A stretch of DNA of 46,821 nucleotides from an uncultured Eubacteriales bacterium (GCA_900545865.1 URAN01000019.1:1-46821), one strand, 5' to 3'; shown: positions 119-18,353, numbered from the stretch's first letter. Notes: generated from the sequence alone by a model not told the origin. Numbers and translations: made by a program.

Positions 119-1204
119 TCAATGTCCTCTGATAAGAGCAGCCAACAATTTTAAAAACTCCCCGTCAGATTCAGCTATGATTCCTCTATCCTTTGGAATC
201 TGCTCCTTTGCCGCCGCATAGTTTGTTGTCAGTACCGGCGTTTTCAGTATCAGTGCCTCACCGATTACAAGAGGATAACCCTCATACGCCGAGAAAAGCG
301 CAAACAAATCAGAATTATATATATAAGGGTATGGATTTGTTTTCTCGCCCTCAAAAATGACAATGTCCTCCACACCCATTTTTTTTGCAAGTCCAATATT
401 TCTTTTCATATCGGGGCCGTCCCCGACAATTCTCCATTTAAAGTTTGTAAGCCCTAAACGTTTAACCTGATAACAGATATTTATAATTCCGTCAATTCTT
501 TTTGATGCGTCGTCTATTCTTGCAACGGTAACAATATCAAATTTTGATTTTTCAAACGGCTCATATGCTTGTGCAAGCTCTTTAATTTCTTTTTCGTCAA
601 ACACATTATGCTGCGTTTTCGTCTTATCGGCATATTCCGGAAGAAATGCATTGAATTTTTCCCGCACTGCGTCCGACACGCATATAATTTTATCAAACGG
701 CTCATAGATTCTTCTGCAGTATTCTTTGTCAAAACCGCCGAAGACAGGGTCTGTATGGATAAAAGCATACTTTTCGCCGGCATTTACGAAATCGGATATG
801 TATAAATTCGTTCCCTTATTAAATACGCCTGCCGGTATGTCTGTAAAATAAGAAACGGCAATGTCATATTTTTTATTTCTCTTTTTAAAGCACAGCCGGT
901 AAAACCGCTTTGTTCCGATAGCTTTCGCAAATACGGTTATCAACATTCTAAGAAATATATCAAACACATTGCCGTTTTTTCTTATATCGCCAAAGGACTG
1001 TGCCGACAGCCCTAAAAGCCTTCCGCCATATTCTGTTTTGATATTCTTCGGCAGTTTTTCCGAAAGCATACCGCCGGTGAAAGCAAAGACGCTTATTTCG
1101 TATTCACCGCTTTCGGAAAGCTTTTTTAAATAGTTTACAAAAGCTTTCTGCACACCGCCGATATTCAGATTCTGTGCTGCAAATAAAATTTCTTTTTTAC
1201 TCAT
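119..1204 (-). CDS. Glycosyltransferase family 1 (GT4-like); last gene of the polysaccharide operon
   Basis: C-terminal EGYPLVIGEALILKTPVLTT motif typical of GT1. Start chosen at MSKKEIL (M29 of the track ORF) because GGAGAG sits 9 nt upstream and its ATG overlaps the upstream TAA as ATGAGTAA. The track ORF 119..1288 has an extra N-terminal extension. Confidence 0.75.
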   Translation of the reverse strand: MSKKEILFAAQNLNIGGVQKAFVNYLKKLSESGEYEISVFAFTGGMLSEKLPKNIKTEYGGRLLGLSAQSFGDIRKNGNVFDIFLRMLITVFAKAIGTKRFYRLCFKKRNKKYDIAVSYFTDIPAGVFNKGTNLYISDFVNAGEKYAFIHTDPVFGGFDKEYCRRIYEPFDKIICVSDAVREKFNAFLPEYADKTKTQHNVFDEKEIKELAQAYEPFEKSKFDIVTVARIDDASKRIDGIINICYQVKRLGLTNFKWRIVGDGPDMKRNIGLAKKMGVEDIVIFEGEKTNPYPYIYNSDLFALFSAYEGYPLVIGEALILKTPVLTTNYAAAKEQIPKDRGIIAESDGEFLKLLAALIRGH

Positions 1205-2192
1205 CCGTTCCATCTCTCCGTATAACATATTTATATAACAGGCGCGAAGTATTGTCGGGACCGAGCAAACATACCGCCGTACGGACAAGCCGTATTTTGT
1301 TTGTTTTGCTTTCTTTGAGAAGAAATCGCAGCGCCTTTATTCTGTCCTTATAATTTTTTCTCGTTTCAGACGGCAGGGCTCCGTAAAACGGAAGAACGAT
1401 TGCATACTGAAACGCAAGGAACGCTAAGATGTGTTTTTTACTTTCACTATGCATTGATTTGTTCAGCCACTTCTCTATAATTTTCAGCTGATCATCAAGA
1501 CTTTTTTCGTTGCCGTAGGAACGTCTTGTGTTTTCGGATATTCGGTAGTAATAAATTCCGTCCTCATAAACGTCTGCCGATTTCATGACGGATACAAGCT
1601 GCAGAGTCCAGTCTATATCCTCGCCGATAAGCCCCTCTCTAAATCGGATATTGTTTGATCTTAAAAACTCTGTTTGTATGATTTTTCCGCCCGAACTTGC
1701 CGGGAATTTTGAACACTCTGATATTGCCTTTAATACCTCATTCGCCGGTTTCCCATGAATTTTTTCACGTTTGAGCCCCTCCGCCATGGGTCTTTTTGTT
1801 CCATCCGGAAGAATTTTTATTATCGTATAAAAAATGATGTCTGCACTGTGGTCAGCCGCTCCTTCGTCAAGCTGTTTGATAAAATTTTCGCTTATATAAT
1901 CATCTGCATCCACAAATATACAGTATCTTCCTCTTGCTCTCCCACAGCCGAAGTTTCTTGCTGCGGCAGGGCCGGCGTTTTCTTTGTGATACACATGAAC
2001 GCACTTATATTCTTTTGCATATTTATCACAGATTTCTCCCGATGAATCGGTTGAGCCGTCGTCTATCAAAATCAGTTCGCATTGCTCGCCCTGCTGCACG
2101 ATACTTTTTATGCACTCTCCTATATATTTTTCCTTGTTGTATACCGGAACAATAAAGCTATATTCATACTCACAGTGCGGCACTCTTTTCAC
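1197..2192 (-). CDS. Glycosyltransferase family 2
   Basis: N-terminal FSFIVPVYNKEKYIGECIKSIVQQ...LILIDDGSTDSS, a classic GT2 (DxD-type) signature. Overlaps neighbouring genes (coupled). Confidence 0.85.
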   Translation of the reverse strand: MKRVPHCEYEYSFIVPVYNKEKYIGECIKSIVQQGEQCELILIDDGSTDSSGEICDKYAKEYKCVHVYHKENAGPAAARNFGCGRARGRYCIFVDADDYISENFIKQLDEGAADHSADIIFYTIIKILPDGTKRPMAEGLKREKIHGKPANEVLKAISECSKFPASSGGKIIQTEFLRSNNIRFREGLIGEDIDWTLQLVSVMKSADVYEDGIYYYRISENTRRSYGNEKSLDDQLKIIEKWLNKSMHSESKKHILAFLAFQYAIVLPFYGALPSETRKNYKDRIKALRFLLKESKTNKIRLVRTAVCLLGPDNTSRLLYKYVIRRDGTDE

Positions 2193-3330
2193 CTCGTCTT
2201 GAACTGTCCTTTTCGTCCGGAAAATATATCCGGAACAATTTCTCTTTTATAATTTTTATGTCATATTTTTTAATTTGCTCTTTATTGTAGTTTCCCATTT
2301 TTCGGCGCAGAGACGGATCATCTATAAGCTTTTTGATCCCCTCGGCAAAGCCATCGGAATCATTTGACGAATATAAAAATCCACCTTTATCCGGTGCAAT
2401 CAGATCCCTGTTTCCGCGCACATTTGACACCACAGCCGGAAGTCCCGCTGCCATTGCTTCCATAAGAGCAAGCGGCATACCCTCGCGCGTTGACGGAAAA
2501 CAGAATATATCGCTTGATTTTAAAAGGTCAAACACATCATTACGAAAACCGGGCAAATGAACCCTGTCTTTTATGCCATGTCTTTCGGCAAGCTCCGACA
2601 GCTCACTGCCAAAAGTTCCGCAGCCTGCGATAATATAATGCAGGTTTTTGTTTTCGATTTTTGCCATTGCCTCAATAATTGTTCGATGATTTTTCAGTTT
2701 GCGAAGCTCTCCGACCGATATAAGAACCGTGTCGCTTTCCTTTATACAAAATTCACGGCGCACTTTGCTTTTGTCGGGGCGGCTGTTTTCGATCCTTTCC
2801 AAATCCACACCGATTCCGTCTATGTGAACGATTTGTTTTGCTTTGAAATTTTTTGACGCCCTTTCATAGTCCTCACGATTAATCGTAACCAAAACATCGG
2901 TAATATGCGCCAGCAATCTTTCAACAGGGTAAAACATAAGCCAAGCCAATTTTGAACTGCCTCTAAAAAAGTGAAATCCGTGCGCAATGTAAACTACTTT
3001 GGTTCCCTTTTTCCTTGCGCCTCTTGCGGCAAGTCTGCCGATAACGCTGCCGACAGGGGTATTGCACTCTATAATATCAAAATTTCCGTTGTCAATTACC
3101 GATTTCAGCATTTTGTATGCTTTAATGTTACTCGCCGAAAACGGATTCCTTGCAAAAGGAATGTCTATATATAAATCACAGTCCGGAATATTCACCTTGC
3201 TGTCCTCATAATCGTTTTTTGCGGCAACAACCGTTTTGTAACCGCATTCTTTAAACATTTTTATGTACGGCAAATGAAAAGTGTTTATATGCGTTTTTAC
3301 CACCGTAGCTATGAATAGTATTTTCTTCAT
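2170..3330 (-). CDS. Glycosyltransferase family 1 (GT4)
   Basis: EGMPLALMEAMAAGLPAVVSNVRGNRDLI motif (GT1 E-x7-E region). 4-bp ATGA overlap with the upstream gene. Confidence 0.85.
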   Translation of the reverse strand: MKKILFIATVVKTHINTFHLPYIKMFKECGYKTVVAAKNDYEDSKVNIPDCDLYIDIPFARNPFSASNIKAYKMLKSVIDNGNFDIIECNTPVGSVIGRLAARGARKKGTKVVYIAHGFHFFRGSSKLAWLMFYPVERLLAHITDVLVTINREDYERASKNFKAKQIVHIDGIGVDLERIENSRPDKSKVRREFCIKESDTVLISVGELRKLKNHRTIIEAMAKIENKNLHYIIAGCGTFGSELSELAERHGIKDRVHLPGFRNDVFDLLKSSDIFCFPSTREGMPLALMEAMAAGLPAVVSNVRGNRDLIAPDKGGFLYSSNDSDGFAEGIKKLIDDPSLRRKMGNYNKEQIKKYDIKIIKEKLFRIYFPDEKDSSRRGEKSAAL

Positions 3331-4040
3331 TTGCCTCTGCCTCGCTTTGATTTATTTTGCCCGTCGCCCCTCATTACAACAGCAGCTGTTGCCAGCAATA
3401 TTTTTGCATCCAGTAAAAGTGAACGCTTTTTTATATACTCTATATCATACTTGATTTTCTCCTCCGGCCTTAAAAACAGCCCCGTTATCTGCGCAAGACC
3501 CGTAATACCCGGCTTTACCATAATTCTTTGCGAAAAACCGGGAATATAGGTTTCAAAGCATTTATAGAAAACCTCTCTTTCGGGGCGCGGTCCCACAAGT
3601 GACAAATCACCCGTAAGGCAGTTAAATAGCTGCGGTATTTCATCAAACTTTATTCTTCTTAAAACCCTGCCGACCGCTGTCAGTCTCTCATCATCTTCGC
3701 CGAGCGACCAACGGATTCCGTCCTCCTCGGCGTTTTCATACATTGTTCTGAATTTGTATATGTAAAACCTCTTGCCGCCGAGTCCGAGCCGTTCCTGCCT
3801 ATATATCGGTTTTCCTTTTGAAGTCACCGCCACGCATATGTAGGCAATTAGCATAGGAATCAGAAGAATAATAATGCCGACAAAAGATGCGATAATATCA
3901 ACTGTTCGCTTTATAAAACCGTATACCGGCTTTGGCGGCAAGTATGTTATTTTTTCAACCTCATATATTTCATCCGTTCTCTCGAACGGCAATATAACCT
4001 TTTCTGCGCCGCTTTCCGTTACGGTTTCCATCGTAATCAT
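3327..4040 (-). CDS. Undecaprenyl-phosphate sugar-1-phosphate transferase (bacterial sugar transferase, WbaP/PglC-like small form); priming enzyme
   Basis: N-terminal TM helix followed by KFRTM...DEIPQLFNCLTGDLSLVGPRPE, the conserved bacterial sugar transferase C-terminal domain. Confidence 0.85.
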   Translation of the reverse strand: MITMETVTESGAEKVILPFERTDEIYEVEKITYLPPKPVYGFIKRTVDIIASFVGIIILLIPMLIAYICVAVTSKGKPIYRQERLGLGGKRFYIYKFRTMYENAEEDGIRWSLGEDDERLTAVGRVLRRIKFDEIPQLFNCLTGDLSLVGPRPEREVFYKCFETYIPGFSQRIMVKPGITGLAQITGLFLRPEEKIKYDIEYIKKRSLLLDAKILLATAAVVMRGDGQNKSKRGRGK

Positions 4041-5050
4041 CTCTTTTCCTTTTCGATTTGTTTTTTTAATACTTCAAAGCCTTTTACAACATCCTTGTAA
4101 TAACTCTTGTCAATCATAAAATTAAGCGGCTCAGATATCAGAAAATTCTGAATTGCTCTTATATCGACAGAACGAATATCGCACCCGGCTATGGGATAAG
4201 ATACGTCAGATAACAAATTTCTCATTTTTTGCCTGTATATAATCGGGTAAAAATCTATGTTCATTTTCAGGCTTAGCACAGCCGAGTGAAATCTTGCACC
4301 GATTATCTTACGGCACACAGAATATGACCTTTGTATTTCTCCGCCGGCGCTGTGGCTCACGATTTCCGCCATATTCTTATGCTTCATAAGCGACTTTACC
4401 TTTTTGCACAGAGAAGTATCGTCCTCTGTGCCTGTATCAAACGCAAGAAGTATCACGCCCTTTCCTGTCGTTTCAATCCAATAATCGGCGATCTGTGCCA
4501 TTTTTAAATAGTAACTGCCGTTATTGCCGTCATAACGAATAAGCGATATACCGAGTTTATCGCCGTTCGATTTTTTTGGGAGCCAACCCTTTGGCATTCC
4601 GAACAGAATATCCGGCATATAGGAAATCATCGTATTCGGACACCTTTTTTGAAGCCATAAAAAGCTATTCTTGTCGCGGCATACAATATACTTGAATTTT
4701 TTCAGCTTATGTATGACAAGCCGTTCGGCAAGCCTGCTTTTAATCGGCTCGATATTGCATCCGATACAGTAATCGGCAATATGCTTTCGTCTTAAAAACC
4801 AGATAAGTTCGCATTTCAGCGCCGCACGGCTGTTTACCATAAATCCGGAACCAATTACCAAAAGCTTCGGGAGTTTTTTCTTCTGCCCGCTATTTTTTAA
4901 ACTGACATTTTTTTCGTCAAGCAGCAAAGTCGAAGGAGAATTGCGCGCGTCTACGTAAAAATTATATTCCGGCATATAATGCGCTGTTATTTTCTGCATA
5001 TAATCGTCGCCGAAATTTTGATCAAAATATCCGCACAATTCCAATTCCAT
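4037..5050 (-). CDS. Polysaccharide pyruvyl transferase family protein (CsaB/WcaK-like)
   Basis: N-terminal CGYFDQNFGDD motif and a later ARFHSAVLSLKMNI motif resemble PS_pyruv_trans. Assignment is by motif memory only. Confidence 0.5.
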   Translation of the reverse strand: MELELCGYFDQNFGDDYMQKITAHYMPEYNFYVDARNSPSTLLLDEKNVSLKNSGQKKKLPKLLVIGSGFMVNSRAALKCELIWFLRRKHIADYCIGCNIEPIKSRLAERLVIHKLKKFKYIVCRDKNSFLWLQKRCPNTMISYMPDILFGMPKGWLPKKSNGDKLGISLIRYDGNNGSYYLKMAQIADYWIETTGKGVILLAFDTGTEDDTSLCKKVKSLMKHKNMAEIVSHSAGGEIQRSYSVCRKIIGARFHSAVLSLKMNIDFYPIIYRQKMRNLLSDVSYPIAGCDIRSVDIRAIQNFLISEPLNFMIDKSYYKDVVKGFEVLKKQIEKEKR

Positions 5051-5051
5051 A

Positions 5052-6425
5052 TTATTCTCCCGCCGTTTCCGTTTCGTTTTTCTTAATATAAACCAACACT
5101 CCGCATATCAGAAAGCCGAACATTAAGGCGAGCGCAAGACCCACTGCATAGTAAAATACCGTACTTGCGGTTTTATGCGCCACAACTCCCGAAATGCAGG
5201 CTATGCTCTGTGCGGATTTGTATGAATTATAATCGTCTATTGTATCTTTCGTAAGCGAATAGAGTTCGTTAAACTTTTCGCATGTGTTTTCAAGACTCGT
5301 TTCAAGTGCATTTTGAATTTCCTTATTTGAAAATCCGTCCGGGAAGCTGTTCGCATCACTCTCATAGCGTTGTCTGTCAATCTCCGTATTCAAAGCGGAC
5401 GTGCGATATTTGACATAGTCTAACACAAGCTGATCATATACTGACTTGTTCTGAACGTAGTTTTCATCACGCTCGGTGTTTTCTCGTACCTGCGAGCTTT
5501 CGCTGTCGTCATCGTCCTTGTTCCGACCGTCTCTGTCCCAAAGATACTGCTTGTTCTTGTCGGAATAAATCGTCATAAGTCCTTTTTGCGTTTCCGCTTT
5601 CTTATTGTTAAGGTCAATATCATATACTGCATCCGTTATTTTATTATGAAGTGCATTTCTCAGATACCAAGCGTTTTTTGTAATACCGCTCTCAATAACC
5701 ATACGTTCCGCAACTGACAAATCCCGTTCGGCAAGCGATTTATACTCCGCTATCAAGTCCAAAAGCGAATAGCCTGTCTGCGGCGAACGATAATTCTTTT
5801 CCGCCTCGTAAACTCTCGCCAAATACTCAATATTAGAGTTTATTTTCTTTCGCAGAATATCCACCGTATCATAGTAATCATGCTGCATTGCCACATCTCC
5901 CGACAGGTTTGTTATATCATAGCTGTAAGTATATCTTTCAACATAATACAGTCGGTACTGACTGAAAACAGCGCTGAGCATACGTTTGGCATAGTCATTG
6001 CCCTTTGATGTAGTATATTTTACCGAGTAGTACACCGTATTCTTCTTTTCATCCTCATTTTTTTCGTAGTCGGAAAACTTGTCGATCCACGATGCATATT
6101 TTTCCTGCTCGGCTGTGGGGATAATGGGAGTCACGGTGATATTGCGGCTGATTTCATCAATATTCATCGTCTTAAGCCCAAGCTCTGTTAATGCGTTTTT
6201 AATCACAATTGAGCTTTTGATTTCATAAGGATTTATTTTTTCGCCGTTTTCGGCAAGTCCGTCCTCAGCCTTTGCACCGATATATTTTATCAATATCTCC
6301 GATGTATAGCTTTCGTCAAGCTTCAGCTTAATGGAGCAAAGAACAACGCTTACGGCAAGCAGTATCACAAATACTTTTTTATGCTCATACAGTCCGTTTA
6401 AGAAATCACGCAGCAGCATTATCAC
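5052..6425 (-). CDS. Bitopic membrane protein, polysaccharide co-polymerase (Wzz/chain-length determinant)-like
   Basis: TM helix at both the N and C terminus, with a large hydrophilic coiled-coil-rich central domain. Sits within a polysaccharide locus. Confidence 0.45.
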   Translation of the reverse strand: MIMLLRDFLNGLYEHKKVFVILLAVSVVLCSIKLKLDESYTSEILIKYIGAKAEDGLAENGEKINPYEIKSSIVIKNALTELGLKTMNIDEISRNITVTPIIPTAEQEKYASWIDKFSDYEKNEDEKKNTVYYSVKYTTSKGNDYAKRMLSAVFSQYRLYYVERYTYSYDITNLSGDVAMQHDYYDTVDILRKKINSNIEYLARVYEAEKNYRSPQTGYSLLDLIAEYKSLAERDLSVAERMVIESGITKNAWYLRNALHNKITDAVYDIDLNNKKAETQKGLMTIYSDKNKQYLWDRDGRNKDDDDSESSQVRENTERDENYVQNKSVYDQLVLDYVKYRTSALNTEIDRQRYESDANSFPDGFSNKEIQNALETSLENTCEKFNELYSLTKDTIDDYNSYKSAQSIACISGVVAHKTASTVFYYAVGLALALMFGFLICGVLVYIKKNETETAGE

Positions 6426-7860
6426 TTTCCTCCTTCATGATCTTTTTTCTTTTCAATACGGAATATATAAGCCGCCATAAATAAAGCACAGCAGCCCATA
6501 TAACCGTTATTTTGGCAATCGTCACAACAGAGGAAACAACTCCCTGTCCGTGACCTATGCCGCTTATATACAATGTTTCATAAGATACGGTATTTATGTA
6601 CTCATCGTTTACGGCAGCGGCTCTTTTTAAGAATTCATCTATTTTCACCGTAATATCGTCGCATTGCTTATCAGCAGCCTTTTTAACCCAATCCGCACTT
6701 TCTTCAAATGCGGAAAATTGCTTTATCAGATAGTCGTAATAATGTGCCTCGTTTTCCGACTCGTCCCCGGCAAGGTTCGCCTTACTTGCGTTTTCCGTCA
6801 GATAGTCTATTCCGATTTTTGTTCTGTTCATATAAAATATATTTTCCGAGTCCAGCGCCGGGATAAATACAACCTTTGTAACAAGCGGATCATACACCGA
6901 TATGCCGTCCAGCATAATGTTATATTCACCTCGGTTTCTCTGCGTCTGCTCGTAATTTTCTTTCGATACATAACTGAACTGCTTTAAAAGCTTGTCTTTG
7001 TCGTTGGTAATACCGTTTTGGATAACAAATGCCTTGTATGTTTCGACATCGTTGTCAGCTATTCCCGTCAGTTCGGTACTCAGGTCACCAAAACTCACGC
7101 CATCCTTTGAAACAAACTTAACGTCCTCATCGTAACGGATTGACAAATACCTGTTTATGCGATTTATAATGTTTTTCAGCTCGCTTGCGCGGTTGAAATA
7201 ATCAAGCAATTTTATTTTTGCCAGATCTGCCTCAAACACAGAACTCGTGAAAACATATTTGCTCTCATAATACTCCTTATAGCTGTCAGCAACAGCGGTT
7301 AGTATTTTTGCTTTTGACGGCAATACAAACTGTTTCAAAACCGCTCTGACAGACGCAGGTATGCCGTTCGCCTTAATCGAATCCGAGATAACCGAATACG
7401 AGATCGTGTATTTTGACGGAAAGTATGAATATGTGTCATTTCCATCGAGAACATTCTGCCTTATTGCGTTAAAGCTGCCGTCCGTGGTGATACCGGTAAC
7501 GGAAATATGCTCCTTCAGCGTTTCGGGGTTTAACTTGTTATTCAGCTTATCACAGGCGCTTGTTAAGACCTCATCGCTTAACACCTCATAAATATCAAAC
7601 GGTGATCCGTCCGGGTTACAGCCCTTTGTTATTTCCGAAAACGAAATTGAAACAGTTGTGTATGCCGTATTCAGATTTCCGGCAATAACGCAGATTGCCG
7701 CAAGTGCCGCAATTATGATTACGCATATCAGCGAATAGCCGAACTTCGCTTTCGGTATTTTCACTTTATCGTTCTCCTCGAACAATATATCCGCAGAAAT
7801 TTCCGTTTCATCGTTTGATGTTTTTGGCTCCGGATAAAGTGTTTTATTGCTGAATATCAT
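6406..7860 (-). CDS. Bitopic membrane protein (second PCP-like or locus-specific envelope protein)
   Basis: N-terminal TM (YSLICVIIIAALAAICVIAG) and C-terminal TM. Start moved to MIFSNKT because AAAGGAGG sits 7 nt upstream. The track ORF extends to 7908. Confidence 0.45.
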   Translation of the reverse strand: MIFSNKTLYPEPKTSNDETEISADILFEENDKVKIPKAKFGYSLICVIIIAALAAICVIAGNLNTAYTTVSISFSEITKGCNPDGSPFDIYEVLSDEVLTSACDKLNNKLNPETLKEHISVTGITTDGSFNAIRQNVLDGNDTYSYFPSKYTISYSVISDSIKANGIPASVRAVLKQFVLPSKAKILTAVADSYKEYYESKYVFTSSVFEADLAKIKLLDYFNRASELKNIINRINRYLSIRYDEDVKFVSKDGVSFGDLSTELTGIADNDVETYKAFVIQNGITNDKDKLLKQFSYVSKENYEQTQRNRGEYNIMLDGISVYDPLVTKVVFIPALDSENIFYMNRTKIGIDYLTENASKANLAGDESENEAHYYDYLIKQFSAFEESADWVKKAADKQCDDITVKIDEFLKRAAAVNDEYINTVSYETLYISGIGHGQGVVSSVVTIAKITVIWAAVLYLWRLIYSVLKRKKIMKEESDNAAA

Positions 7861-9037
7861 ATGAAACCTCCTTTTGTTTTTCGGGTTTATCAAAGGAAAG
7901 CGCCGCATATATCAGCAAATTCCAGAAAGCCTTAATACTCGGATTTATTGTGAGCGTCATAGAAAGCGCCAATATGCCGAGCATCGCCGCCGAGATATAT
8001 CCCCGTTTTTTTATGTTTCTCAATACAGCCGCAGAGGACATCAGAATAAACATTACAAATCCCGGTATGCCTTGGTTATAGAGCGACTGTATAAATTGGT
8101 TGTGTGCCACCACGTGCATCAGTTTTCCGTCTATCATCATTTCGTGATAGGCAAATATTCCTCTGCCGTACATCAGTTCCCACGACGAGTGTTTTATCGT
8201 ATTGAGCATTGAAAGCCATATATCCCCTCGTCCGGTTCCGTGGGATTCGATAATCTTTTGTATACTGAAACGCGATGAAACATCTTCGGGCAGAATCGGA
8301 ATAACAACCGTCCACAGAATAACCGCCATGCCGATTGCCGTGCAAATTCCGATAATGCGCTGTTTTGTCCCCTTTGCGTTTATGAACACATACGACATTA
8401 TCATAACCGCAAGCCCAAGCAACCCGCCGCGCGAACCGGAGGTGAAAACCATATATGCTCCGAGAGCAAGTAAAACCGCACATATAATAGTATAGATTTT
8501 GTTGTCTCTCAGCTTTTTTAAAGCGACTGCCATAGGCAAAAGAAAAAATCCGGCAAAGTAGTTCGGATCGCTTGTGGTTCCGAATATTATCATCGTGTTT
8601 CTGTCACCGTACCAATCCGCACCGATAAATCCGAGCGTAATCAGTACACCGAGCAGTGTAAGCTGTGTAATCTCAAACGCTTTAATTTCATTTTCAGTAT
8701 ATTTGCGCATGGTTATAAGAAACATCAGACCTATCGTTTCAAAATATCCGCGCACATATTGCAGCGCCACCGGGCTTCTGTCCGCAAACAACGTCATAAC
8801 AACCGTTATCAGATACGCAAACGACAACAAATGAACGATGTTCAGCTCAAGTTTTTCACGATAGAAAAACCAGCTTACCGCAAAATATCCGGCAATAGGT
8901 ATAGTCAGCAGTTTCAAAAAGGAATTTCCCGCAGCGTTAATTGTAATGGTAAGCGGCAATGCAAGAAAATACGCACAAACAAGAATGCATGAAAGCCCGA
9001 TATCCGCTTTTTTCAGACTGTTTATCAATCTCCTCAC
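7844..9037 (-). CDS. O-antigen polymerase/ligase family membrane protein (Wzy-like)
   Basis: About 10 predicted TM segments and a GSRGGLLGL motif typical of Wzy_C. Probable GTG start preceded by GAAGGAAA. Confidence 0.65.
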   Translation of the reverse strand: MRRLINSLKKADIGLSCILVCAYFLALPLTITINAAGNSFLKLLTIPIAGYFAVSWFFYREKLELNIVHLLSFAYLITVVMTLFADRSPVALQYVRGYFETIGLMFLITMRKYTENEIKAFEITQLTLLGVLITLGFIGADWYGDRNTMIIFGTTSDPNYFAGFFLLPMAVALKKLRDNKIYTIICAVLLALGAYMVFTSGSRGGLLGLAVMIMSYVFINAKGTKQRIIGICTAIGMAVILWTVVIPILPEDVSSRFSIQKIIESHGTGRGDIWLSMLNTIKHSSWELMYGRGIFAYHEMMIDGKLMHVVAHNQFIQSLYNQGIPGFVMFILMSSAAVLRNIKKRGYISAAMLGILALSMTLTINPSIKAFWNLLIYAALSFDKPEKQKEVSYDIQQ

Positions 9038-9082
9038 AGCTCCGTTTCCTTCTGAATTTTATATCATACGTAAAAAGCGCCG

Positions 9083-9316
9083 CTACATCTGCCTTTTTTG
9101 CAGCAAAAAAGCAATAGCTTCGTCTTTTGACGTAAGCAACGGCTTTTCTCCGTGGAAGTATTCTATTGCATCCAAAAGAACGGAAAGAGAATATTCTTCA
9201 AGCCTTATGAAGGTCAAGGCGTGCATGGCCCTGTCTCTGTCTCTGCCGAAACGCAAATCGGAAATATTCATACAACCGACCCTGTCTTTTAATATCTCAA
9301 ATAAATCTTTTTCCAT
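9083..9316 (-). CDS. Small hypothetical protein (77 aa); first gene downstream of the invertible switch
   Basis: ORF with AAGGA 9 nt upstream of its ATG. Lies 45 bp upstream of the wzy-like gene. No recognisable domain. Confidence 0.4.
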   Translation of the reverse strand: MEKDLFEILKDRVGCMNISDLRFGRDRDRAMHALTFIRLEEYSLSVLLDAIEYFHGEKPLLTSKDEAIAFLLQKRQM

Positions 9317-9375
9317 AGTCAGCCATCCTTGATTACAAAGTATTACTCTGCCGATAACTTATTTTCAGTGTGTTT

Positions 9376-9399
9376 ACAACATAATTGCGATTATGTTGT
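9376..9399. repeat. Left inverted recombination site of invertible segment: ACAACATAA-TTGCGA-TTATGTTGT
   Basis: 9-bp perfect inverted arms around a 6-bp asymmetric core. The exact reverse complement occurs at 9649..9672. Confidence 0.8.
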
Positions 9400-9585
9400 A
9401 AATGGGTATTTGCCTTATGCAAACCATTGAAAAACATAAAGTTTTCTTGAATGTTTTTTGCATAAAAGCGCTTGTTAAACAGACCAATGATATTGCAAAT
9501 ATAACATTGGTCTGATTTTCCGTATTCTTTTTTTATTGCATAGTGATGAAATTTTGAAGATAAACAGAAAAGAAATCGCAAACTA

Positions 9586-9614
9586 TTGACAAATTCGACT
9601 TTTTCTGATAAAAT
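9586..9614 (+). promoter_or_regulatory. Sigma-70-like promoter inside the invertible segment (TTGACA-17-TAAAAT with extended -10 TGA)
   Basis: TTGACA at 9586-9591, a 17-nt spacer, then TGATAAAAT. Currently points at the + strand, away from the polysaccharide operon. Confidence 0.55.
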
Positions 9615-9648
9615 ATATGTAGATAAGTATATCTTTTTTTCAACAGGC

Positions 9649-9672
9649 ACAACATAATCGCAATTATGTTGT
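9649..9672. repeat. Right inverted recombination site: ACAACATAA-TCGCAA-TTATGTTGT
   Basis: Exact reverse complement of 9376..9399 including the asymmetric core, so the two cores are in inverted orientation. Confidence 0.8.
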
Positions 9673-9676
9673 GTTT

Positions 9677-10594
9677 TTAACATCGCAAAAGACCAAGCTT
9701 TTGCAACTGTTTCATATGCTCTGTTCCGCTTTCTGCAGTGTAAATTCTTGTAGTGTTAATATTGGAATGTCCGAGTATATCAGCGAGTCTTACAATATCT
9801 TTTTGCAGGGAATAATAAGTTCTTGCAAAAAGGTGACGAAAGTTATGCGGAAACACTTTTTCTTTTGACACTCCCGCACTCTCACACAGCTCCTTTAACA
9901 TTCTCCATATATTCGATCTGTCAAGAGGCGTACCTGTTCTCGTAACAAATATGCTGCCGCTTTTGATACCCTGTTTCGACGCATACTTTTGCAGGATAAT
10001 ACACAGCTTTTTGGGCAGAAAAACCTGCCTTATTTTTCCCTTGCAGTTTATTATTGCCTGTCTGCGTTTTATGGCCTCAAATGTTATAAATTTAATTTCC
10101 GATACCCGAAGTCCTGTGCTTGCAATCGTCTGTATCAGATAATACAGCTTTTTGTTTTTCCTGTTCTTTGCCGCCGTCAGCAGTCTTTCATACTCTGTTT
10201 TTGTCAGTTCCTTTGACTTGTCTGCAAAAATCTTGCGCTGTGTTTTCAATGTTTTTACCTTCATTTTGTGCCAATCGGCATATTCAAAGAACATATTGAG
10301 CGAGGACAGTATCGAATTAACACTTGCGGTTTTATATTGCGCAATCAGGCGTTCTTTATATTGAATGACCCTTTCCTTGCGTGGAATTTCTCCGCCGAGC
10401 CATTTGACAAACGCCGTAACGTCACGAATATATTTCTCGATGGTAGCGTCCGATTTTTCTTCGTTTGCAAGATATTTTCTGAATTTTTGAATTTGTTTTT
10501 CGGTTATACTCTGTAATTTCATATTGACCGCTTCCTTTCTTTTCACCATATATATTGTACCACTCAGGCAAAATTTATAAATTGAAGCTGTCAA
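9677..10594 (-). CDS. Tyrosine site-specific recombinase, XerC/XerD-like (candidate invertase for the adjacent switch)
   Basis: C-terminal HNFRHLFARTYY...LGHSNINTTRIYT carries the R-H-R-Y catalytic tetrad context. Its 3' end lies 5 bp from the right inverted repeat. Confidence 0.85.
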   Translation of the reverse strand: MTASIYKFCLSGTIYMVKRKEAVNMKLQSITEKQIQKFRKYLANEEKSDATIEKYIRDVTAFVKWLGGEIPRKERVIQYKERLIAQYKTASVNSILSSLNMFFEYADWHKMKVKTLKTQRKIFADKSKELTKTEYERLLTAAKNRKNKKLYYLIQTIASTGLRVSEIKFITFEAIKRRQAIINCKGKIRQVFLPKKLCIILQKYASKQGIKSGSIFVTRTGTPLDRSNIWRMLKELCESAGVSKEKVFPHNFRHLFARTYYSLQKDIVRLADILGHSNINTTRIYTAESGTEHMKQLQKLGLLRC

Positions 10595-10664
10595 CAGTTT
10601 GCTCCTTTATCTCCGATTTCGTTAAACTTGCCGTAAAACGAGTCTTACTATTGCCGAATTATAT

Positions 10665-10716
10665 AAAAGCCGCCCGACAATAAAGGCATGTTGCCTCTAT
10701 GCCGGGCGGCTTTTTC
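10665..10716 (-). terminator. Rho-independent terminator downstream of the tlpA-like gene
   Basis: GCCGCCCG...CGGGCGGC stem followed by a T-run on both strands. Confidence 0.6.
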
Positions 10717-10827
10717 TGCCGTCTGAAACCCTCGTTTTAAAAAGGCTTATTTTAATTTTTTATTTAGGCATAAACCGACGCAGGATTTTTACGGTATATT
10801 TGTACGAGCATTATTTTAATATTATTC

Positions 10828-11745
10828 TCATTTCATATCGGCGGCAATACATTGGTCGATTAATGATTTCAGCTTCTCCATTTGTGATTTGCCGGTAACA
10901 CCGCCGACAATCGGTTCTCCAACGATGCTGCCGCTGCGGTCAACCACATATGTTGTGGGATAGGCGTATACATTTTCGACAAACTTTCCTGCCTCGCTGT
11001 CAGAATCAAAGTATACATTCCGATAGGAAACGCCTTTCTTTTTCAAAACTGCCTTTGCTTCGGATATTGCCGCCTCATCTCCGTCCAGCGTGAAAGAATT
11101 TATTCCGATGAGAGAACCTCCTTTCCCGGAAAGCTCTTTATTCAGCGCATCAAGTTCGGAAAGCTCACCCACGCAGGGAGAACAGGTAGTGAACCAAAAG
11201 TTTACCACCGTGACAGCATTGCTTGAAAACAGCTCATCACTCTTTATTTCGTTCCCGTCCAGATCCTTTCCTTCAAAGGACGGAAAATTCCCCGTACTGC
11301 CGTTATCGGATGGCATACTCATATCATTATCCGACGATTTTTGCGCTGCATCCGGATATTTTTTTTCAATCATAGTCAGCTTATTTTCAATATCCCGGAT
11401 TTTCTCTGCTTCACCCTTAAGCAATTTAAGCTCGTCCTCCGTAAACCGTTCCTTGATGGTGTCAATGGTTTTGAGAAGAAAATCACCGTAGTTTTTACCG
11501 TCCTCCTGCAGAGTCATACCTTTGTCCGCCGCCGCAAAAACCTGTTCCCAAAGCTTTGTATTCTCCGCCAGAATCGCATTTTCACGTGCCATCAGTTCTT
11601 TATGCATTGCTACCGCTTCTTCGGCATTTTTCGGTTCATTTTCCATACCGTTCAATTTGTTATTATCCGTCGTTGTGCAGGCTGCCGTAACCAACACCAC
11701 CAGCGCAAGCGTCAGCGCCGCTGTTAGAAGTTTTTTTATACTCAT
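10828..11745 (-). CDS. TlpA/ResA-like thiol-disulfide oxidoreductase lipoprotein (thioredoxin fold, CSPC active site)
   Basis: Lipobox LVVLVTAAC and WFTTCSPCVGE (CxxC) in a thioredoxin-like domain. Coiled-coil linker between the two. Confidence 0.75.
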   Translation of the reverse strand: MSIKKLLTAALTLALVVLVTAACTTTDNNKLNGMENEPKNAEEAVAMHKELMARENAILAENTKLWEQVFAAADKGMTLQEDGKNYGDFLLKTIDTIKERFTEDELKLLKGEAEKIRDIENKLTMIEKKYPDAAQKSSDNDMSMPSDNGSTGNFPSFEGKDLDGNEIKSDELFSSNAVTVVNFWFTTCSPCVGELSELDALNKELSGKGGSLIGINSFTLDGDEAAISEAKAVLKKKGVSYRNVYFDSDSEAGKFVENVYAYPTTYVVDRSGSIVGEPIVGGVTGKSQMEKLKSLIDQCIAADMK

Positions 11746-13897: not shown

Positions 13898-14170
13898 ATG
13901 AACAAATCAGAGTTGGTTGCGATAATGGCTGAAAAAGCGAGCCTTTCAAAAAAGGACGCCGAGGGCGCATTAAACGCATTTGTTGACGCTGTAAAGGATG
14001 CCGTAAAGAAGAACGACAAGGTTCAGCTTGTCGGCTTCGGAACTTTTGAATCTCGCAAAAGAGAAGCAAGAGAAGGCAAAAACCCGCAGACGGGCGAAAA
14101 AATCAAAATCGCCGCGTGCAACTCGCCGGCTTTCAAGCCCGGCAAAGGCTTCAAGGATTACATAAACTAA
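13898..14170 (+). CDS. hup: DNA-binding protein HU (histone-like)
   Basis: MNKSELVAIMAEKASLSKKDAEGALNAFVDAV...GFGTFESRKREAREGKNPQTGEKIKI is the canonical HU/IHF fold sequence. RBS GAGGAGG 7 nt upstream. The track ORF 13670..14170 is an N-terminally over-extended version. Confidence 0.9.
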   Translation: MNKSELVAIMAEKASLSKKDAEGALNAFVDAVKDAVKKNDKVQLVGFGTFESRKREAREGKNPQTGEKIKIAACNSPAFKPGKGFKDYIN

Positions 14171-14179
14171 GAACAAGAG

Positions 14180-14222
14180 AAAACCGCCAATATGATTAAA
14201 ATCATTGTCAGCGGTTTTTCTA
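14180..14222 (+). terminator. Putative rho-independent terminator after hup
   Basis: AAACCGC...GCGGTTTTT stem-loop with a T-run. Confidence 0.45.
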
Positions 14223-14377
14223 TGTGAATTTATTACTGCATATTTATATTTATTCCAATATTCCAAATTGTTATACGATTTATGTCTTATTATCTATATC
14301 ATTAATCGGGTGAAAACCCTGTATTTATCAGCATTTTTCAAAGAATTTGTTTTTTGCTTCTCCCCCAAATATACCGT

Positions 14378-14399
14378 TTGACCACAATTTTGACCACAA
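14378..14399. repeat. attL-like direct repeat
   Basis: 22-bp perfect match to 20246..20267. Internally a tandem of TGACCACAA. Confidence 0.8.
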
Positions 14400-14447
14400 C
14401 TGACCCCCAAAACTCAAAATACCGCCCTGTTCGGAGCGGCATTTTAT

Positions 14448-14744
14448 TTATATTAACTTGATAAGCTGTAGTAATTTGATACAGTCCTTAAAGCCTTGAA
14501 GATACAAAAAATCTTTTTCTTTATCGGTTATTTGATATATGATATTTTTCCATTCGTCTATGGCTTTAATTTCCGTATCATCTAATTTTGAATATAATTC
14601 TTTAAGTATAATACTTACTTTTTTATTTTCCTCACATAGGCTTTTATACTCGCTGTCATATGCTCTATACTCTTTAAGTACAGACTGCTCATTGTCGGCA
14701 AAAAAATTTAAAACGGCTTTATCAAAATCATTCATTTGTAACAC
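14448..14744 (-). CDS. Hypothetical protein (98 aa) within the integrative element
   Basis: ORF followed by a hairpin and T-run at 14422-14445. No recognisable domain. Confidence 0.4.
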   Translation of the reverse strand: MLQMNDFDKAVLNFFADNEQSVLKEYRAYDSEYKSLCEENKKVSIILKELYSKLDDTEIKAIDEWKNIIYQITDKEKDFLYLQGFKDCIKLLQLIKLI

Positions 14745-14754
14745 CCCTTATTTT

Positions 14755-15963
14755 TTAGATATATAGACTGCTTAATTTTTCCATAGATTGTTTTTTGTGG
14801 TCTGGCAATGCGTGAGCATATTTATTTAAGGTTGTACTTGCATTAGCGTGTCCCAGAACAGAAGCCAATACTTTAACATCAAAACCGAATTCTAATGCTC
14901 TTGTCGCAAAAGTATGCCTTAAAGTATGAAAATGTGTTGTTTCTATCTTTGCTTTTTCCAGCATATTTTTGAAAAAAACTTGATAAGTCCGAGGTTCTAT
15001 ACATTTCCCATATTCATTACAAATTACAAAGTCATTATCATTGTATAGCTGACATACACGTTTTTTCTCAACAGCAAGCATTTGTTTGTGTTCCTTTAAT
15101 AATGGTATTAAAAACTTTTGAAGCGGAATAACTCTGTTAGAATTGCTTGTTTTAGGCTCACTTATTACAATATCCGTTTTCTTTTCCGAATTATCATATA
15201 GTGTCAGCCTGTTCAGAGAACGTCTTACTGTTACGGTGCGTTCCTTAAAATCAATATCACTGAATTTAAGCCCTAAAATTTCACCTATACGCATACCTGT
15301 GTAAAGCGATAACAATACTCCAATACCAAGCCTTTCGCCTTCTAATGCGTCTTGTAATGCCTGTTGTTCCTCTAATGTAAATACACGCATTTCACGTTGT
15401 TGTTCTTTCGGAAGTGTAACCAAGTCGCAAATATTTCTTTTAACATAGTTATTTCTATAAGCTTCTTTGTATGCGCAGGATATGACTTTAAAAACACCTC
15501 TTACAGAGCTTGCGGAAAGCCCCTCATTTCTTTTCTTATTGAGGAGCTTTTGCAGAGTATTTGCGGTTAGGTCTTTTAATTTTATTCGTCCGATTTCGGG
15601 CTTGATATGTAATCTTATCTGACGTTCATAACTGCCGTATGTAGATAGTTTTACATTCGGCTTTACATAAACGTCTAACCATTCATCAAGCCACGCACCG
15701 AAAGAAATATTAGGATTGGCAATATAACTGTGATTGTCAATGTCATTTAATATTTTATTTAACTTTTTTCTTACCTCGTCTTGTGTTTTGCCATATACGC
15801 TTTTACGTTTGTAATTTAAGCTGTAAAGACCCTCCCAGCGACCGTCTTTTCTCTGCCGTATAGTTCCCTCTCCGTTAGCTCTTTTCTTTGCCACGATACA
15901 CACTTCCTTAAATACAACAATACTTTCTGCAATGATTTTTATACAGTGTTGTTTGCAAGCCAA
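14755..15963 (-). CDS. int: Phage-type tyrosine integrase
   Basis: N-terminal arm-binding-type KRANGEGTIRQRKDGRWEG. C-terminal HTLRHTFATRALE...LGHANASTTLNKYAH catalytic domain. Confidence 0.9.
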   Translation of the reverse strand: MACKQHCIKIIAESIVVFKEVCIVAKKRANGEGTIRQRKDGRWEGLYSLNYKRKSVYGKTQDEVRKKLNKILNDIDNHSYIANPNISFGAWLDEWLDVYVKPNVKLSTYGSYERQIRLHIKPEIGRIKLKDLTANTLQKLLNKKRNEGLSASSVRGVFKVISCAYKEAYRNNYVKRNICDLVTLPKEQQREMRVFTLEEQQALQDALEGERLGIGVLLSLYTGMRIGEILGLKFSDIDFKERTVTVRRSLNRLTLYDNSEKKTDIVISEPKTSNSNRVIPLQKFLIPLLKEHKQMLAVEKKRVCQLYNDNDFVICNEYGKCIEPRTYQVFFKNMLEKAKIETTHFHTLRHTFATRALEFGFDVKVLASVLGHANASTTLNKYAHALPDHKKQSMEKLSSLYI

Positions 15964-16148
15964 TTTTTAAATGCTTCTTTTTCAACTAACACACGTTTTC
16001 CGATTTTCATTTTCGGAAATGCGTCTAATGCCATTATTCTGTATGCGTTCGGCTTTGACACACGCAAAACCTCTTGAACATCTTTAACCGTCATAACAAG
16101 CGGTAAAGCTTCAAAAGATGTAACCTTTTTTACCAGTCGCCTTTTCAT
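15939..16148 (-). CDS. xis: Excisionase / HTH DNA-binding protein (Xis-like)
   Basis: 69-aa protein immediately upstream of int, overlapping it. LVMTVKDVQEVLRVSKPNAYRIM is an HTH_17/excisionase-like helix. Confidence 0.65.
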   Translation of the reverse strand: MKRRLVKKVTSFEALPLVMTVKDVQEVLRVSKPNAYRIMALDAFPKMKIGKRVLVEKEAFKNWLANNTV

Positions 16149-16204
16149 ATACTCACCCCTTTCTATATAGGTAATATATATTTAATATTATATATTGTAT
16201 ATTT

Positions 16205-16247
16205 ATTATAACACCACTTGACATATTTGTCAAGTATAATATATAAT
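16205..16247. promoter_or_regulatory. Face-to-face divergent consensus promoters sharing a palindromic -35 (TTGACAtattTGTCAA)
   Basis: Minus strand: TTGACA (RC of 16228-16233), 17-nt spacer, TATAAT (RC of 16205-16210), pointing toward xis-int. Plus strand: TTGACA 16218-16223, 18-nt spacer, TATAAT 16242-16247, pointing toward the 310-aa gene. Confidence 0.55.
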
Positions 16248-16289
16248 ATAATTATATGATTAGGTATTTGATAAAAGGAGCTGTATAGA

Positions 16290-17222
16290 ATGAATGTAAG
16301 CAAATACATTACAATAGATAAAAAACATATGTATTTACCTATAACAAACGAGGAATTTGAAATAGGCACTCTCTTGCTTGATTTTTTGGAATTAGATTTA
16401 AGCACATACCAAAAAGAAGTAGAAATAATTAAACAGCTTAAAGCTGAAAATATCAGAAAATGCCGACCGACAGGCAGAGGGTATAAAGGTTACAAAGGTA
16501 TTATTCTTCAAATTGATAACAATATGTCAGATGAGGAAAAGTATGTCCGAATGGCTTTATATGACGCTTTAAAAGCTACCGAACACCCATACGCATATGA
16601 GGTTGAATATTCCGCACTTCACGATATAGACTATATGAAATTGTTTGATATATTTGACCTTGTAAAGCTTCAAAAAGAATATAGGGCGGCGGTTAATGCC
16701 TGTTTGTTAAAGCAGAACGAAAATGAGAAGTTTAACCCATTGGAAAGGTATCTTAATTATTCCCACGAATTAAACGGCAAGGCAGAAATTGTATATACGG
16801 TATCTAAAGATTTAACGCTGTGTGAGGAATATATTGCTTCTGATATATCATCGTTATTGTACCTTGAATTTATGAAAATGTTGCAATACAATATATTTGT
16901 GAGGAAATGTGAAAACTGCGGTAGGCTGTTTGCGGTAAAGGGAAATTACAATAAAAAATACTGTGACCGTAAAATTTCGGGTACGTCTAAAACCTGTCAA
17001 GAAGTCGGAGCGGTAAACAGCTTTAAAAACAAAACTTTGAAAGACCCGATTATAGGCGAATACCAAAGGGCATATAAACGTCTTTACGCACGGAAAAGGA
17101 CAGGGAAAATTACAAAAGAGGAATTGGATATACAATTAAAAAAGGCTACCGCATTACGTGATGAAGCCGTAAAGGGCAGTCTTTCAAAAGATGAATATTT
17201 AGAACAAATCATTAAAATTTAA
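16290..17222 (+). CDS. Hypothetical protein with C-terminal C4 zinc-finger (CENCGRLF...CDRK...CQE)
   Basis: 310-aa ORF with a good AAAGGAG RBS. Function unknown; likely an element regulatory or replication-related protein. Confidence 0.5.
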   Translation: MNVSKYITIDKKHMYLPITNEEFEIGTLLLDFLELDLSTYQKEVEIIKQLKAENIRKCRPTGRGYKGYKGIILQIDNNMSDEEKYVRMALYDALKATEHPYAYEVEYSALHDIDYMKLFDIFDLVKLQKEYRAAVNACLLKQNENEKFNPLERYLNYSHELNGKAEIVYTVSKDLTLCEEYIASDISSLLYLEFMKMLQYNIFVRKCENCGRLFAVKGNYNKKYCDRKISGTSKTCQEVGAVNSFKNKTLKDPIIGEYQRAYKRLYARKRTGKITKEELDIQLKKATALRDEAVKGSLSKDEYLEQIIKI

Positions 17223-17629
17223 AGATATTTTAACGCTGTACGTACTATGTCTAAAACCGCTTCTTGTGTCTGGAGCGGTTTTCCTTTTATAAGCTGTTTA
17301 AAGTCTATAATAATCTGCTCTTCACTTGTGGGAACACTTTCGGAAAACAGGTAGTTCATATCTATGTCAAGCTCTGTAACAAGCTTTACAAGCGTTTGCA
17401 GGGAAAAACTCCGCTGATTGCGTTCTATATGCCCGATATAGGCAGGTGTAACGTCCACAAGCTCCGCTAATTCTTCTTGTGTCAAGCCTTGATTTAGGCG
17501 TGCTTCTCTGATTATATTTCCTATGCGGTCAAGCTTTAAATCAATTTCTTTTGTATGTGGTTTACGTTCTGTGATATGTGTGCGGTTTCTGCTGTCAATC
17601 TGTCCGCTTTTATGTTTTTTAATCTTCAT
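17219..17629 (-). CDS. XRE-family HTH transcriptional regulator
   Basis: IREARLNQGLTQEELAELVDVTPAYIGHIERNQRSFSLQTLVKLVTEL is a Cro/C1-type HTH. Confidence 0.75.
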   Translation of the reverse strand: MKIKKHKSGQIDSRNRTHITERKPHTKEIDLKLDRIGNIIREARLNQGLTQEELAELVDVTPAYIGHIERNQRSFSLQTLVKLVTELDIDMNYLFSESVPTSEEQIIIDFKQLIKGKPLQTQEAVLDIVRTALKYL

Positions 17630-18353
17630 AATAAATACAACTCCTTGTACATATAGTTTATACTAAAAGAATTGTTTTATGAAGATATTACAAGTACAGA
17701 CCACTTTGTTTATCAGTACAGTTTATAAAGCAGATTTATATATTATACATTGTGAGAATGATATTATATACCGCTCTCACAAGTGGTCAAAAGAAGTATA
17801 ACAGCTTTTGCGGTTTTGTTTTATGGTATTTGTATTTTATGCTATATATGATATTACAAAAAGTATATATACTGTAATGTAGTCATTGGTTAGTGTATGC
17901 TGATTTAATTATACACGTGTGACAACCCACCTTTAAACGTGTATTAACAAGCGAAAACTTCCACGCTGACCGCTTACGTCTGAGGATAAAATTTCAAACA
18001 GGAGGTTATAAACTTTTATAAGGTAAATGTGTGCTATCTTAATTTTCCGCTCCGTAAATCAAAAACTTTTACCGTGTATTTTTATATTATTCTCTTTTAC
18101 AAGTCAAATTAAGGGCGGCAGAGAATATATATCTTTAACTATATAAGTGTCATAATACAAGTGAAAAAAAATTAACAAAAGGACGGTAAAATAAAAATGT
18201 CTTTAAGTAGTTACAGAAGCCATATTACCAATAGACTAATATACAAATTAAACTTATATACAATATATCTTACTTATGCCCTTTAACGGTCTGATACCTT
18301 TTATATTAAAATTTTATTTTTCGGAAAACAAGGACAGGGGTTAGGTATAGAAA

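Follow-up and report, generated by a model that had tools for sequence, protein, structure and literature searches.

The DNA analysed here, referred to throughout as the window, is a stretch of 46,821 nucleotides (nt) from an uncultured Eubacteriales bacterium (GCA_900545865.1 URAN01000019.1:1-46821). Within it, a minus-strand operon for exopolysaccharide (EPS) or capsule synthesis is separated from a minus-strand gene for a tyrosine recombinase by a segment bounded by two inverted 24-bp sites (Table 1). A preliminary description had proposed that this segment is an invertible promoter cassette, by which the operon would be switched ON and OFF. Analysis of the locus, of related public contigs and of a wider recombinase family suggests that it is very probably a tyrosine-recombinase promoter inverton controlling the EPS operon.

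Table 1. Features of the switch locus in window coordinates, with predicted roles
Feature	Position	Strand	Details
Wzy-dependent exopolysaccharide or capsule operon	119-9037	-	Presumed cargo of the switch
First gene past the switch, 77-aa open reading frame	9083-9316	-	Good ribosome-binding site, AAGGATGG
Operon-proximal site	9376-9399		ACAACATAAT-TGCG-ATTATGTTGT; part of a 13-4-13 palindrome, 9373-9402
Invertible cassette	9400-9648		249 bp, non-coding; promoter aimed at the recombinase gene in the window (OFF for the operon)
Stable hairpin	9480-9514		Inverted repeat I2, upstream of the promoter; a T-rich tract (9515-9536) comes next on the + strand
Predicted sigma-70-type promoter	9586-9614	+	-35 TTGACA (9586-9591), 17-nt spacer, extended -10 TGaTAAAAT (9606-9614)
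Recombinase-proximal site	9649-9672		ACAACATAAT-CGCA-ATTATGTTGT on the + strand; centre reads TGCG in the recombinase's direction
Tyrosine recombinase, 281 aa	9677-10522	-	ATG start; presumed invertase of the adjacent switch
Promoter-like site before the recombinase gene	10554-10581	-	TTTATA-16-TACAAT with TG; 9/12 matches, a weak consensus match

The repeat finder returned the two sites (9376-9399 and 9649-9672) as 24-nt arms, 100% complementary and 249 nt apart, bearing out the earlier statement that they are exact reverse complements. No further copy of the 24-mer with up to three mismatches was found elsewhere in the 46.8-kb window, and 100 dinucleotide-preserving shuffles gave 0 matches to it. 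Each site is nearly palindromic, and the two copies are also 92% identical as direct repeats, with the centre alone differing (TGCG vs CGCA). The preliminary description had recognised an asymmetric core between inverted arms, which stood, and had divided the site as 9 + 6 + 9, which did not. Comparison across the family set the division at 10 + 4 + 10, with ACAACATAAT and ATTATGTTGT as arms and an asymmetric centre of 4 bp (TGCG / CGCA). Symmetric arms around a spacer that is free but matched to that of its partner characterise the crossover sites of tyrosine recombinases (loxP, FRT, dif), and the window sites fit this type. The recombinase-proximal site is kept in approximately 70 related contigs. 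Neighbouring genes lie slightly closer than first described: the right site is 4 nt, not 5, from the recombinase stop codon, and the left site is separated by a leader of 59 nt, not 60, from the ATG at 9316 that opens the gene cluster on the operon side. The placement of a minus-strand EPS operon to the left of the switch was otherwise correct.

Strains carry 1-nt and 17-nt insertions or deletions inside the cassette, which is thus non-coding. Across positions 8900-11000, a consensus scan returned a sole strong promoter match, located between the sites as had been described. The predicted promoter has 11 of 12 consensus matches, with a -10 hexamer TAAAAT at 9609-9614 preceded by an extended TG at 9606-9607, and both hexamers show little or no variation among strains. 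It ends 34 nt short of the exit site, and transcription is predicted to start ~7 nt past 9614. In the window's orientation it would fire antisense into the 3' end of the recombinase gene and leave the EPS operon unserved (OFF). The consensus scan found no other good promoter facing the operon in this orientation, in keeping with the OFF state originally proposed. The hairpin upstream of the promoter has a predicted free energy of -15.5 kcal/mol on the plus strand and -17.6 kcal/mol on the minus strand (z-scores of -2.5 and -3.2, respectively), and may, tentatively, serve as a transcription insulator or terminator.

Gene callers start the recombinase at TTG 10594, giving a product of 305 aa. 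Pfam matches were found to Phage_integrase (2.8e-28) and to Phage_int_SAM_1, a SAM-like N-terminal domain. The catalytic positions R139, K163, H226, R229, H252 and Y261 are kept, as determined from the family alignment and from alignment to 4a8e, a XerA-like protein and the nearest solved relative, with which the RVSE, HxxRH and GHS...Y motifs align. The gene adjoining the right site therefore encodes a tyrosine recombinase, as the preliminary description had stated. The best-scoring NCBIfam models were Xer types, with scores below the cut-offs for XerD (126 vs 329.6 bits), XerC (110 vs 335) and XerA (139 vs 220), indicating that the protein is Xer-like in sequence but not a Xer equivalog. For the FimB/FimE-type models NF007370 (cut-off 221) and NF007371 (cut-off 222), the scores were 39.8 and 37.2 bits, respectively. 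The reading frame is intact in the window and in most other loci of the species group, and from its position we infer that the adjacent recombinase is the catalyst of inversion. Since the stop codon is only 4 nt from the site, the recombinase transcript must run into the cassette.

On the other side of the switch, the 77-aa open reading frame (ORF) had no Pfam or NCBIfam match, and its homologues, in 23 clusters, are confined to the window's species group. It contains an in-frame (AGAGAC)n repeat (9231-9248, minus strand) encoding RDRDR. The copy number differs by strain, yielding products of 75, 77 and 79 aa (GRDRAM, GRDRDRAM and GRDRDRDRAM, respectively). A NusG/LoaP-like first gene, expected by analogy with Bacteroides UpxY, was considered and rejected, as the ORF belongs to no family and the first genes of ~185 aa found elsewhere in the switch family are of TetR type. 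No Rfam family was found anywhere in the window, and thus no riboswitch in the leader. The operon continues with Wzy_C (7844-9037), two unassigned proteins of membrane size (500 aa and 457 aa), a pyruvyl transferase, a Bac_transf priming transferase, GT1, GT2 and GT1. Its genes are tightly packed or overlapping, and it may continue past the window edge.

Related contigs were collected from many independent gut metagenome assemblies by looking up exact protein matches to the 305-aa recombinase and to the 77-aa product and its variants. Further contigs, L038 and L039 among them, came from a single scan of metagenome contigs for the bare 24-nt site. Orientation was called in approximately 70 public contigs of the same species group by aligning the interior both ways relative to the flanks. 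In lineages with the TGCG centre, 59 loci were window-like (OFF), three were inverted (ON; L044, L132 and L038) and one (L039) was without the cassette. The window-like count includes 54 loci that span both flanks, and a few that are one contig present in two collections (for example L008/L015 and L002/L034). A search of metagenome contigs for the exact 36-nt ON-junction pattern produced no match, a false negative owing to two strain single-nucleotide polymorphisms (SNPs).

The clearest inverted locus was L044 (CAKSTL010000001.1), a 264-kb contig of a metagenome-assembled genome (MAG) from a Hadza sample. Its recombinase is intact and 98% identical to that of the window, the flanks align collinearly with those of the window, and both sites have unchanged centres, the operon-proximal site also keeping its position. 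The 249-bp interior is reverse-complemented, with TTGACA-17-TGaTAGATT aimed at the 77-aa ORF. Contig L132 (ERZ27287306), from another sample, carries the ON junction on the operon side. The recombinase-side ON junction is present in L038, which matches the window-like L029 at 99.8% identity over 1,151 nt. L038 is weaker evidence than L044, owing to nonsense codons shared with L029 and to 3.8 kb of unmatched upstream sequence. In a sister lineage (L143-L147; small protein 79% identical), five of five contigs were ON, with the pair-matched centre AACA/TGTT. The order in L143 is recombinase, site, hairpin and T-run, TTGACA-17-TGATAAAAT, site, leader, ATG. The more distant L048 (recombinase 86% identical; centre AGCG/CGCT) was also ON. 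The promoter had been described as facing away from the operon in the window, and the inverted state predicted from this was found in L044, L132, L038 and L143-L147. Bounding inverted repeats, an internal promoter (by consensus) that serves the operon in one orientation only, and the occurrence of both orientations with identical flanks together mark the locus, by sequence, as a probable promoter inverton.

The upstream context of L038 is unusual. At positions 1-3780, the match to other loci ends approximately 46 nt before the TTG start codon of the recombinase (window ~10640). The upstream 3.8 kb, with DUF1846, DUF1275 and a ToxN type III toxin, matches no other locus, and the AhpC and ferredoxin genes are replaced. 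This could reflect a chimeric assembly, a rearrangement, or movement of the recombinase-plus-switch module.

The ends of certain assembled contigs bear on orientation within samples. Logan contigs L139-L141 (up to 14 kb) start with CCATTT, the site and A, and L142 starts with T and the site. Contigs that break at the site come from SRR15209290, SRR15343454, ERR15728870 and SRR27430478. At k = 31, which we take to be the value used in the Logan assembly, the 31-mer CCCATTT plus the site occurs both in the operon-side junction of the OFF state and, in reverse complement, in the recombinase-side junction of the ON state, and the next k-mer is the first one that separates them. No repeated 30-mer touching 9340-9700 was found in the window to explain the breaks otherwise. 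A break caused by the closest strain SNP, which lies 9 nt from the site, would fall 2 nt further in. The break position in L139-L141 is suggestive, though not proof, of mixed orientation within those samples.

Loss of the cassette was seen once. At positions 3380-3500 of L039, the recombinase flank is joined to the EPS flank via a single 24-bp site (centre TGCG), with the 249-bp cassette precisely lost; to judge by this junction, the locus looks like a permanently promoter-less, locked state. The recombinase of L039 is frameshifted. This contig belongs to a sub-lineage with decayed recombinase genes (L029, L031, L035, L036, L038, L039 and L041), in which the switch is window-like, inverted or deleted. 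Such a pattern would be expected if the sites are kept up by the enzyme and states freeze once the recombinase is lost. The recombinase genes of L029 (1756-2676) and L038 (3827-4747), which correspond to window 9677-10594, share stops at one W and two Q codons, all arising from G:C to A:T changes, and carry many other transitions. That of L035 has two stops, and its proximal site is mutated. In one lineage (L022, positions 2780-3670, and also L023-L027), a Transposase_mut (IS256-like) element has inserted into the 77-aa gene and shortened its product to 42 aa; an HTH gene and a gene for a reverse transcriptase come next. Both the recombinase and an intact switch persist there, and the insertion implies that the EPS cargo is disrupted or replaced.

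Relatives of the recombinase number in the thousands. A scan of one genome per species identified at least 587 loci, all in MAGs of gut Clostridia from humans and ruminants, and the best 80, which are 63-99% identical and from different species, were examined. An unbiased exact-repeat search found an inverted-repeat pair downstream of the recombinase in approximately 62 of the 67 loci with enough sequence. The pairs usually begin 5-30 bp past the stop codon and enclose 150-296 bp, with an interior of ~240 bp in the layout shared by most of the 80 relatives. Fifty-five fit the pattern CATAAT-N4-ATTATG, with 10-bp arms conserved as AC[AC]ACATAAT / ATTATGT[GT]GT, and the 4-bp centre is free between loci (TGCG, CGAA, TCAC, CTGT and others). 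Within pairs, the centres were reverse-complementary in all 55 cases (0 direct, 0 palindromic), with a single mismatch in L045. This result agrees with the earlier prediction that the inverted cores would direct inversion and not excision. Conserved arms, a free centre and matching between partners would be expected of protein-binding arms around a strand-exchange spacer, and are difficult to reconcile with an operator or a transposon end.

The cassettes of the family also share their internal layout. Each contains a near-consensus extended -10 promoter, which is directed at the cargo in 21 loci and at the recombinase in 30; in four its direction is ambiguous. The distance from the -10 element to the exit site has a median of 35 nt (51 members; mostly 24-46 nt), and the ~170 nt upstream of the promoter commonly contain a stable hairpin (median -15.3 kcal/mol). 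The flipped promoter would read the strand on which the cargo genes are encoded. Their first genes include TetR-type regulators (19 of 44), and SLH, dockerin, fn3, SPFH/zinc-ribbon and Wzy proteins also occur. The prominence of TetR cargo suggests phase-variable regulons besides directly switched surface genes. In loci L049-L121, the commonest first gene past the distal site encodes a TetR-type regulator of ~185 aa, often with the centre CGAA, and is followed by genes for large proteins. On these comparisons, the window copy represents a general module in its EPS-linked form.

Some single genomes carry two or three paralogous modules of recombinase and switch: L045/L094/L120 (MAG CAKSSN01), L050/L066, L053/L060, L078/L082 and L091/L092. 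In this small sample, paralogous centres differ in five of six such genomes (TGCG, CAGC and CAGT in CAKSSN01), and L091 and L092 share CGAA.

The following mechanism is proposed. The recombinase would bind the four arms of the two 24-bp sites and synapse the sites with their centres paired, and strand exchange across the 4-bp centre would invert the 249-bp cassette. As the centres are inverted relative to each other, the outcome would be a flip and not an excision. After inversion the promoter would lie at ~9434-9462 on the minus strand, and transcription would cross the left site and a leader of ~110 nt before reaching the 77-aa ORF and the EPS operon, in the layout found in L044 and L143. 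A mis-aligned synapse would occasionally delete the cassette. Such deletion is possible because only two of the four centre bases differ between alignments (TGCG vs CGCA), and it would fit L039. Exchange within the centre, reversibility within a clone, silence of the OFF state, and shielding of the cassette by the hairpin from recombinase read-through are elements that we infer from the arrangement of the locus.

Several points weigh against this mechanism. The excess of OFF loci in the TGCG-centre lineages, 59 compared with only three ON, may mean that switching is rare, strongly biased, or lost in some strains. The flanking DNA of L044 is ~3.5% different from that of OFF strains, and its inversion need not therefore be recent. 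L038 is partial, with three nonsense codons in its recombinase common to L029, and could be a chimeric assembly or the product of inversion catalysed in trans. The operon could be expressed to some extent even in the OFF state, by read-through from the recombinase promoter. The activity of the cassette promoter, the positions of transcript ends and a terminator role for the hairpin are predictions. Among 51 family loci, a T-run follows the hairpin on the promoter strand in 30 and on the other strand in 23, a weak bias (p = 0.04). The scan tool did not call a terminator there, and a role for the hairpin as a directional intrinsic terminator is at most tentative.

Some of these points would equally suit a frozen relic, that is, an ancestral inverton that no longer switches in this strain or lineage, with orientation differences as old, fixed polymorphisms and the operon permanently off or otherwise driven. 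The 59:3 ratio and the divergence of the one complete ON contig, L044, are compatible with this, as is the sub-lineage (L029, L035, L038, L039) in which the recombinase is decaying, with nonsense codons in common and mutated sites. Known switches such as cwpV, however, normally show a strong OFF bias. The recombinase frame remains intact in the window and in most loci, the two sites still match perfectly, and the promoter hexamers do not vary across strains. Furthermore, L038 and L029 are opposite in orientation despite their near identity, and contigs break at the position predicted for mixed orientation. A relic is accordingly considered unlikely.

The precise absence of the cassette from L039, with a single site left, and the different upstream context of the L038 module raise the question of a mobile or excisable element of small size: a unit resembling a miniature inverted-repeat transposable element (MITE), with terminal inverted repeats of 24 bp, or a cassette excised by the recombinase. 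This seems very improbable. There is one copy per locus, with neither site nor motif elsewhere in the window, and it stands at a fixed distance past the recombinase stop codon in species with 63-99% recombinase identity. In L044 the inversion occurred in situ with unchanged flanks, the inverted centres of all 55 pairs disfavour excision, and no clear target-site duplication was found at the flanks. One deletion among ~70 contigs fits a mis-aligned synapse of near-palindromic sites, or slippage between the 92%-identical direct copies. A MITE or an element derived from an insertion sequence was rejected on the same grounds: no dispersed copies in the window, no clear duplication, and a position always directly after the recombinase gene.

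Least credible of all are static operators or dif-like Xer sites, with an internal promoter that makes antisense RNA against the recombinase and no DNA rearrangement; the near-palindromic sites, the Xer-like recombinase sequence and the direction of the promoter in the window would allow this, but both orientations were observed, the scores are far under the Xer equivalog cut-offs, dif is a single site and not an inverted pair around a promoter, and centres that vary freely yet match within pairs are the hallmark of crossover spacers rather than operators. A XerC/XerD/XerA resolvase role was also rejected, from the same scores, the two inverted sites flanking a promoter, and the same layout in ~62 relatives.

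Two extensions of the promoter inverton are offered tentatively. Antisense transcription from the OFF promoter might lower recombinase expression and bias the population to OFF, which would fit the 59:3 excess. More broadly, the locus might exemplify a portable phase-variation module (dedicated recombinase, 10-4-10 site pair, cassette with hairpin and promoter) that has spread across hundreds of gut Clostridia species, with varied cargo (TetR, S-layer, dockerin, SPFH, EPS), the 4-bp centre acting as an address against cross-recombination between paralogues and the OFF promoter feeding back antisense on the recombinase to set the OFF bias. We regard this combined proposal as speculative; neither the addressing nor the feedback is known to have been described for the family.

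Elsewhere in the window, positions 14000-20200 form an island of low guanine-plus-cytosine content (33-35% vs ~42% elsewhere). It encodes a 402-aa phage-type integrase (14755-15963, minus strand), an HTH_3 regulator, and DUF6076 and DUF6591 proteins, and is probably an integrated mobile element. No transfer RNA genes were found anywhere in the window. Positions 21300-32720 (minus strand) carry genes of envelope or surface type, encoding TMEM43-like, HEAT-repeat, SPFH/Band_7, LRR_5 plus SLH, DUF4428 zinc-ribbon and TPM-domain proteins, and a protein of 1109 aa that contains a Listeria-Bacteroides repeat. SPFH and zinc-ribbon genes are the cargo of two family switches elsewhere; no switch motif lies beside them in the window.

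Phase-variable surface glycans are central to the evasion of phages and host immunity by gut bacteria, and the mechanism is known nearly entirely from Bacteroides, E. coli and C. difficile. Here, a self-contained switch on a Wzy-type operon is described in an uncultured, widespread lineage of gut Clostridia, found in humans (including Hadza and Nepali) and ruminants. Its grammar can be searched for across several hundred species, as CATAAT-N4-ATTATG pairs after a Xer-like recombinase, with an extended -10 element ~35 nt from one site. Annotators could thereby call such invertons without reads, and metagenomic phase-variation tools would gain defined junctions. As a compact system of one recombinase and one site pair, it has a centre that could be reprogrammed, and its deletion and pseudogene variants illustrate the decay of switches into locked states. 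The finding is sound and useful, though it would not surprise specialists in gut bacterial phase variation.

In arrangement, the locus resembles fimS of E. coli, which is acted on by FimB/FimE: the recombinase gene lies directly upstream in the same direction, followed by an invertible promoter cassette of ~300 bp and then an operon for a surface structure. In fimE orientational control, the recombinase transcript enters the invertible element, allowing control that depends on orientation. The window's fimE/fimS-like arrangement leaves room for similar control of its recombinase. The fimS element, however, has 9-bp repeats and needs IHF and Lrp, whereas the window has 24-bp perfect sites. FimB and FimE are ~200 aa and are without a SAM-like N-terminal domain, while the window recombinase has this domain, would act alone, and has a polysaccharide cargo. 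It would work as the fimS system does, but lies outside the FimB/FimE family (39.8 bits vs 221).

In Bacteroides, capsule and EPS operons of a gut commensal are likewise put under ON/OFF control by promoter flips between inverted repeats (Mpi-dependent PSA-PSH; Tsr-type). The phylum, repeat motifs and promoter type differ (sigma-AB consensus vs a sigma-70 extended -10 in the window). Mpi is a globally acting serine recombinase, whereas the window recombinase is adjacent and of tyrosine type. Bacteroides operons begin with upxY/upxZ, while the first gene in the window is the unrelated 77-aa ORF. Tsr-type cases, including a large-capsule EPS locus, have a dedicated adjacent tyrosine recombinase (references listed in PMC11602134).

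The RecV switches of Clostridioides difficile (cwpV, flgB, cmrRST, pdcB) share with the window a Clostridia host, a tyrosine recombinase, and short invertible segments before surface or signalling genes. RecV is a single distant master recombinase that serves several imperfect repeats in trans, in contrast to the adjacent recombinase and perfect repeats of the window. Some RecV switches act after transcription start, in a terminator or riboswitch context, and move no promoter, whereas the window has a canonical promoter. Strong orientation bias is reported for the RecV switches (PMC5903667, PMC2784873), and earlier surveys recorded many unexplored inversion sites in Clostridia (PMC5903667).

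The closest published counterpart is probably inverton group 139, with invertase group 35, from the hCom2 defined gut community (Microbiome 2025, PMC11892184). A literature search with the arm sequences returned only unrelated primer matches, and no paper printing the arm sequence was found. The 10-4-10 site grammar, the covariation of centres, the cassette layout and the cargo spectrum appear not to be described in the paper on that group. The group's 33 invertons, distributed over 17 strains, have 13-25-nt repeats and interiors of ~206-228 bp, and reads show both orientations, with shifts over passages, in Clostridium sp. D5 (3525576-3525832) and Intestinimonas butyriciproducens DSM 26588 (1750639-1750893) (PMC11892184). 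Its hosts are cultured, unlike the organism of the window. In both cases the host belongs to the gut Clostridia, the switch is intergenic and of similar dimensions, and a tyrosine-type recombinase lies adjacent (in nearly every member of the group), in a position not regulatable by the promoter. From this comparison by description and dimensions, as the inverted-repeat motif of the group appears only in a figure, the window switch probably belongs to inverton group 139.

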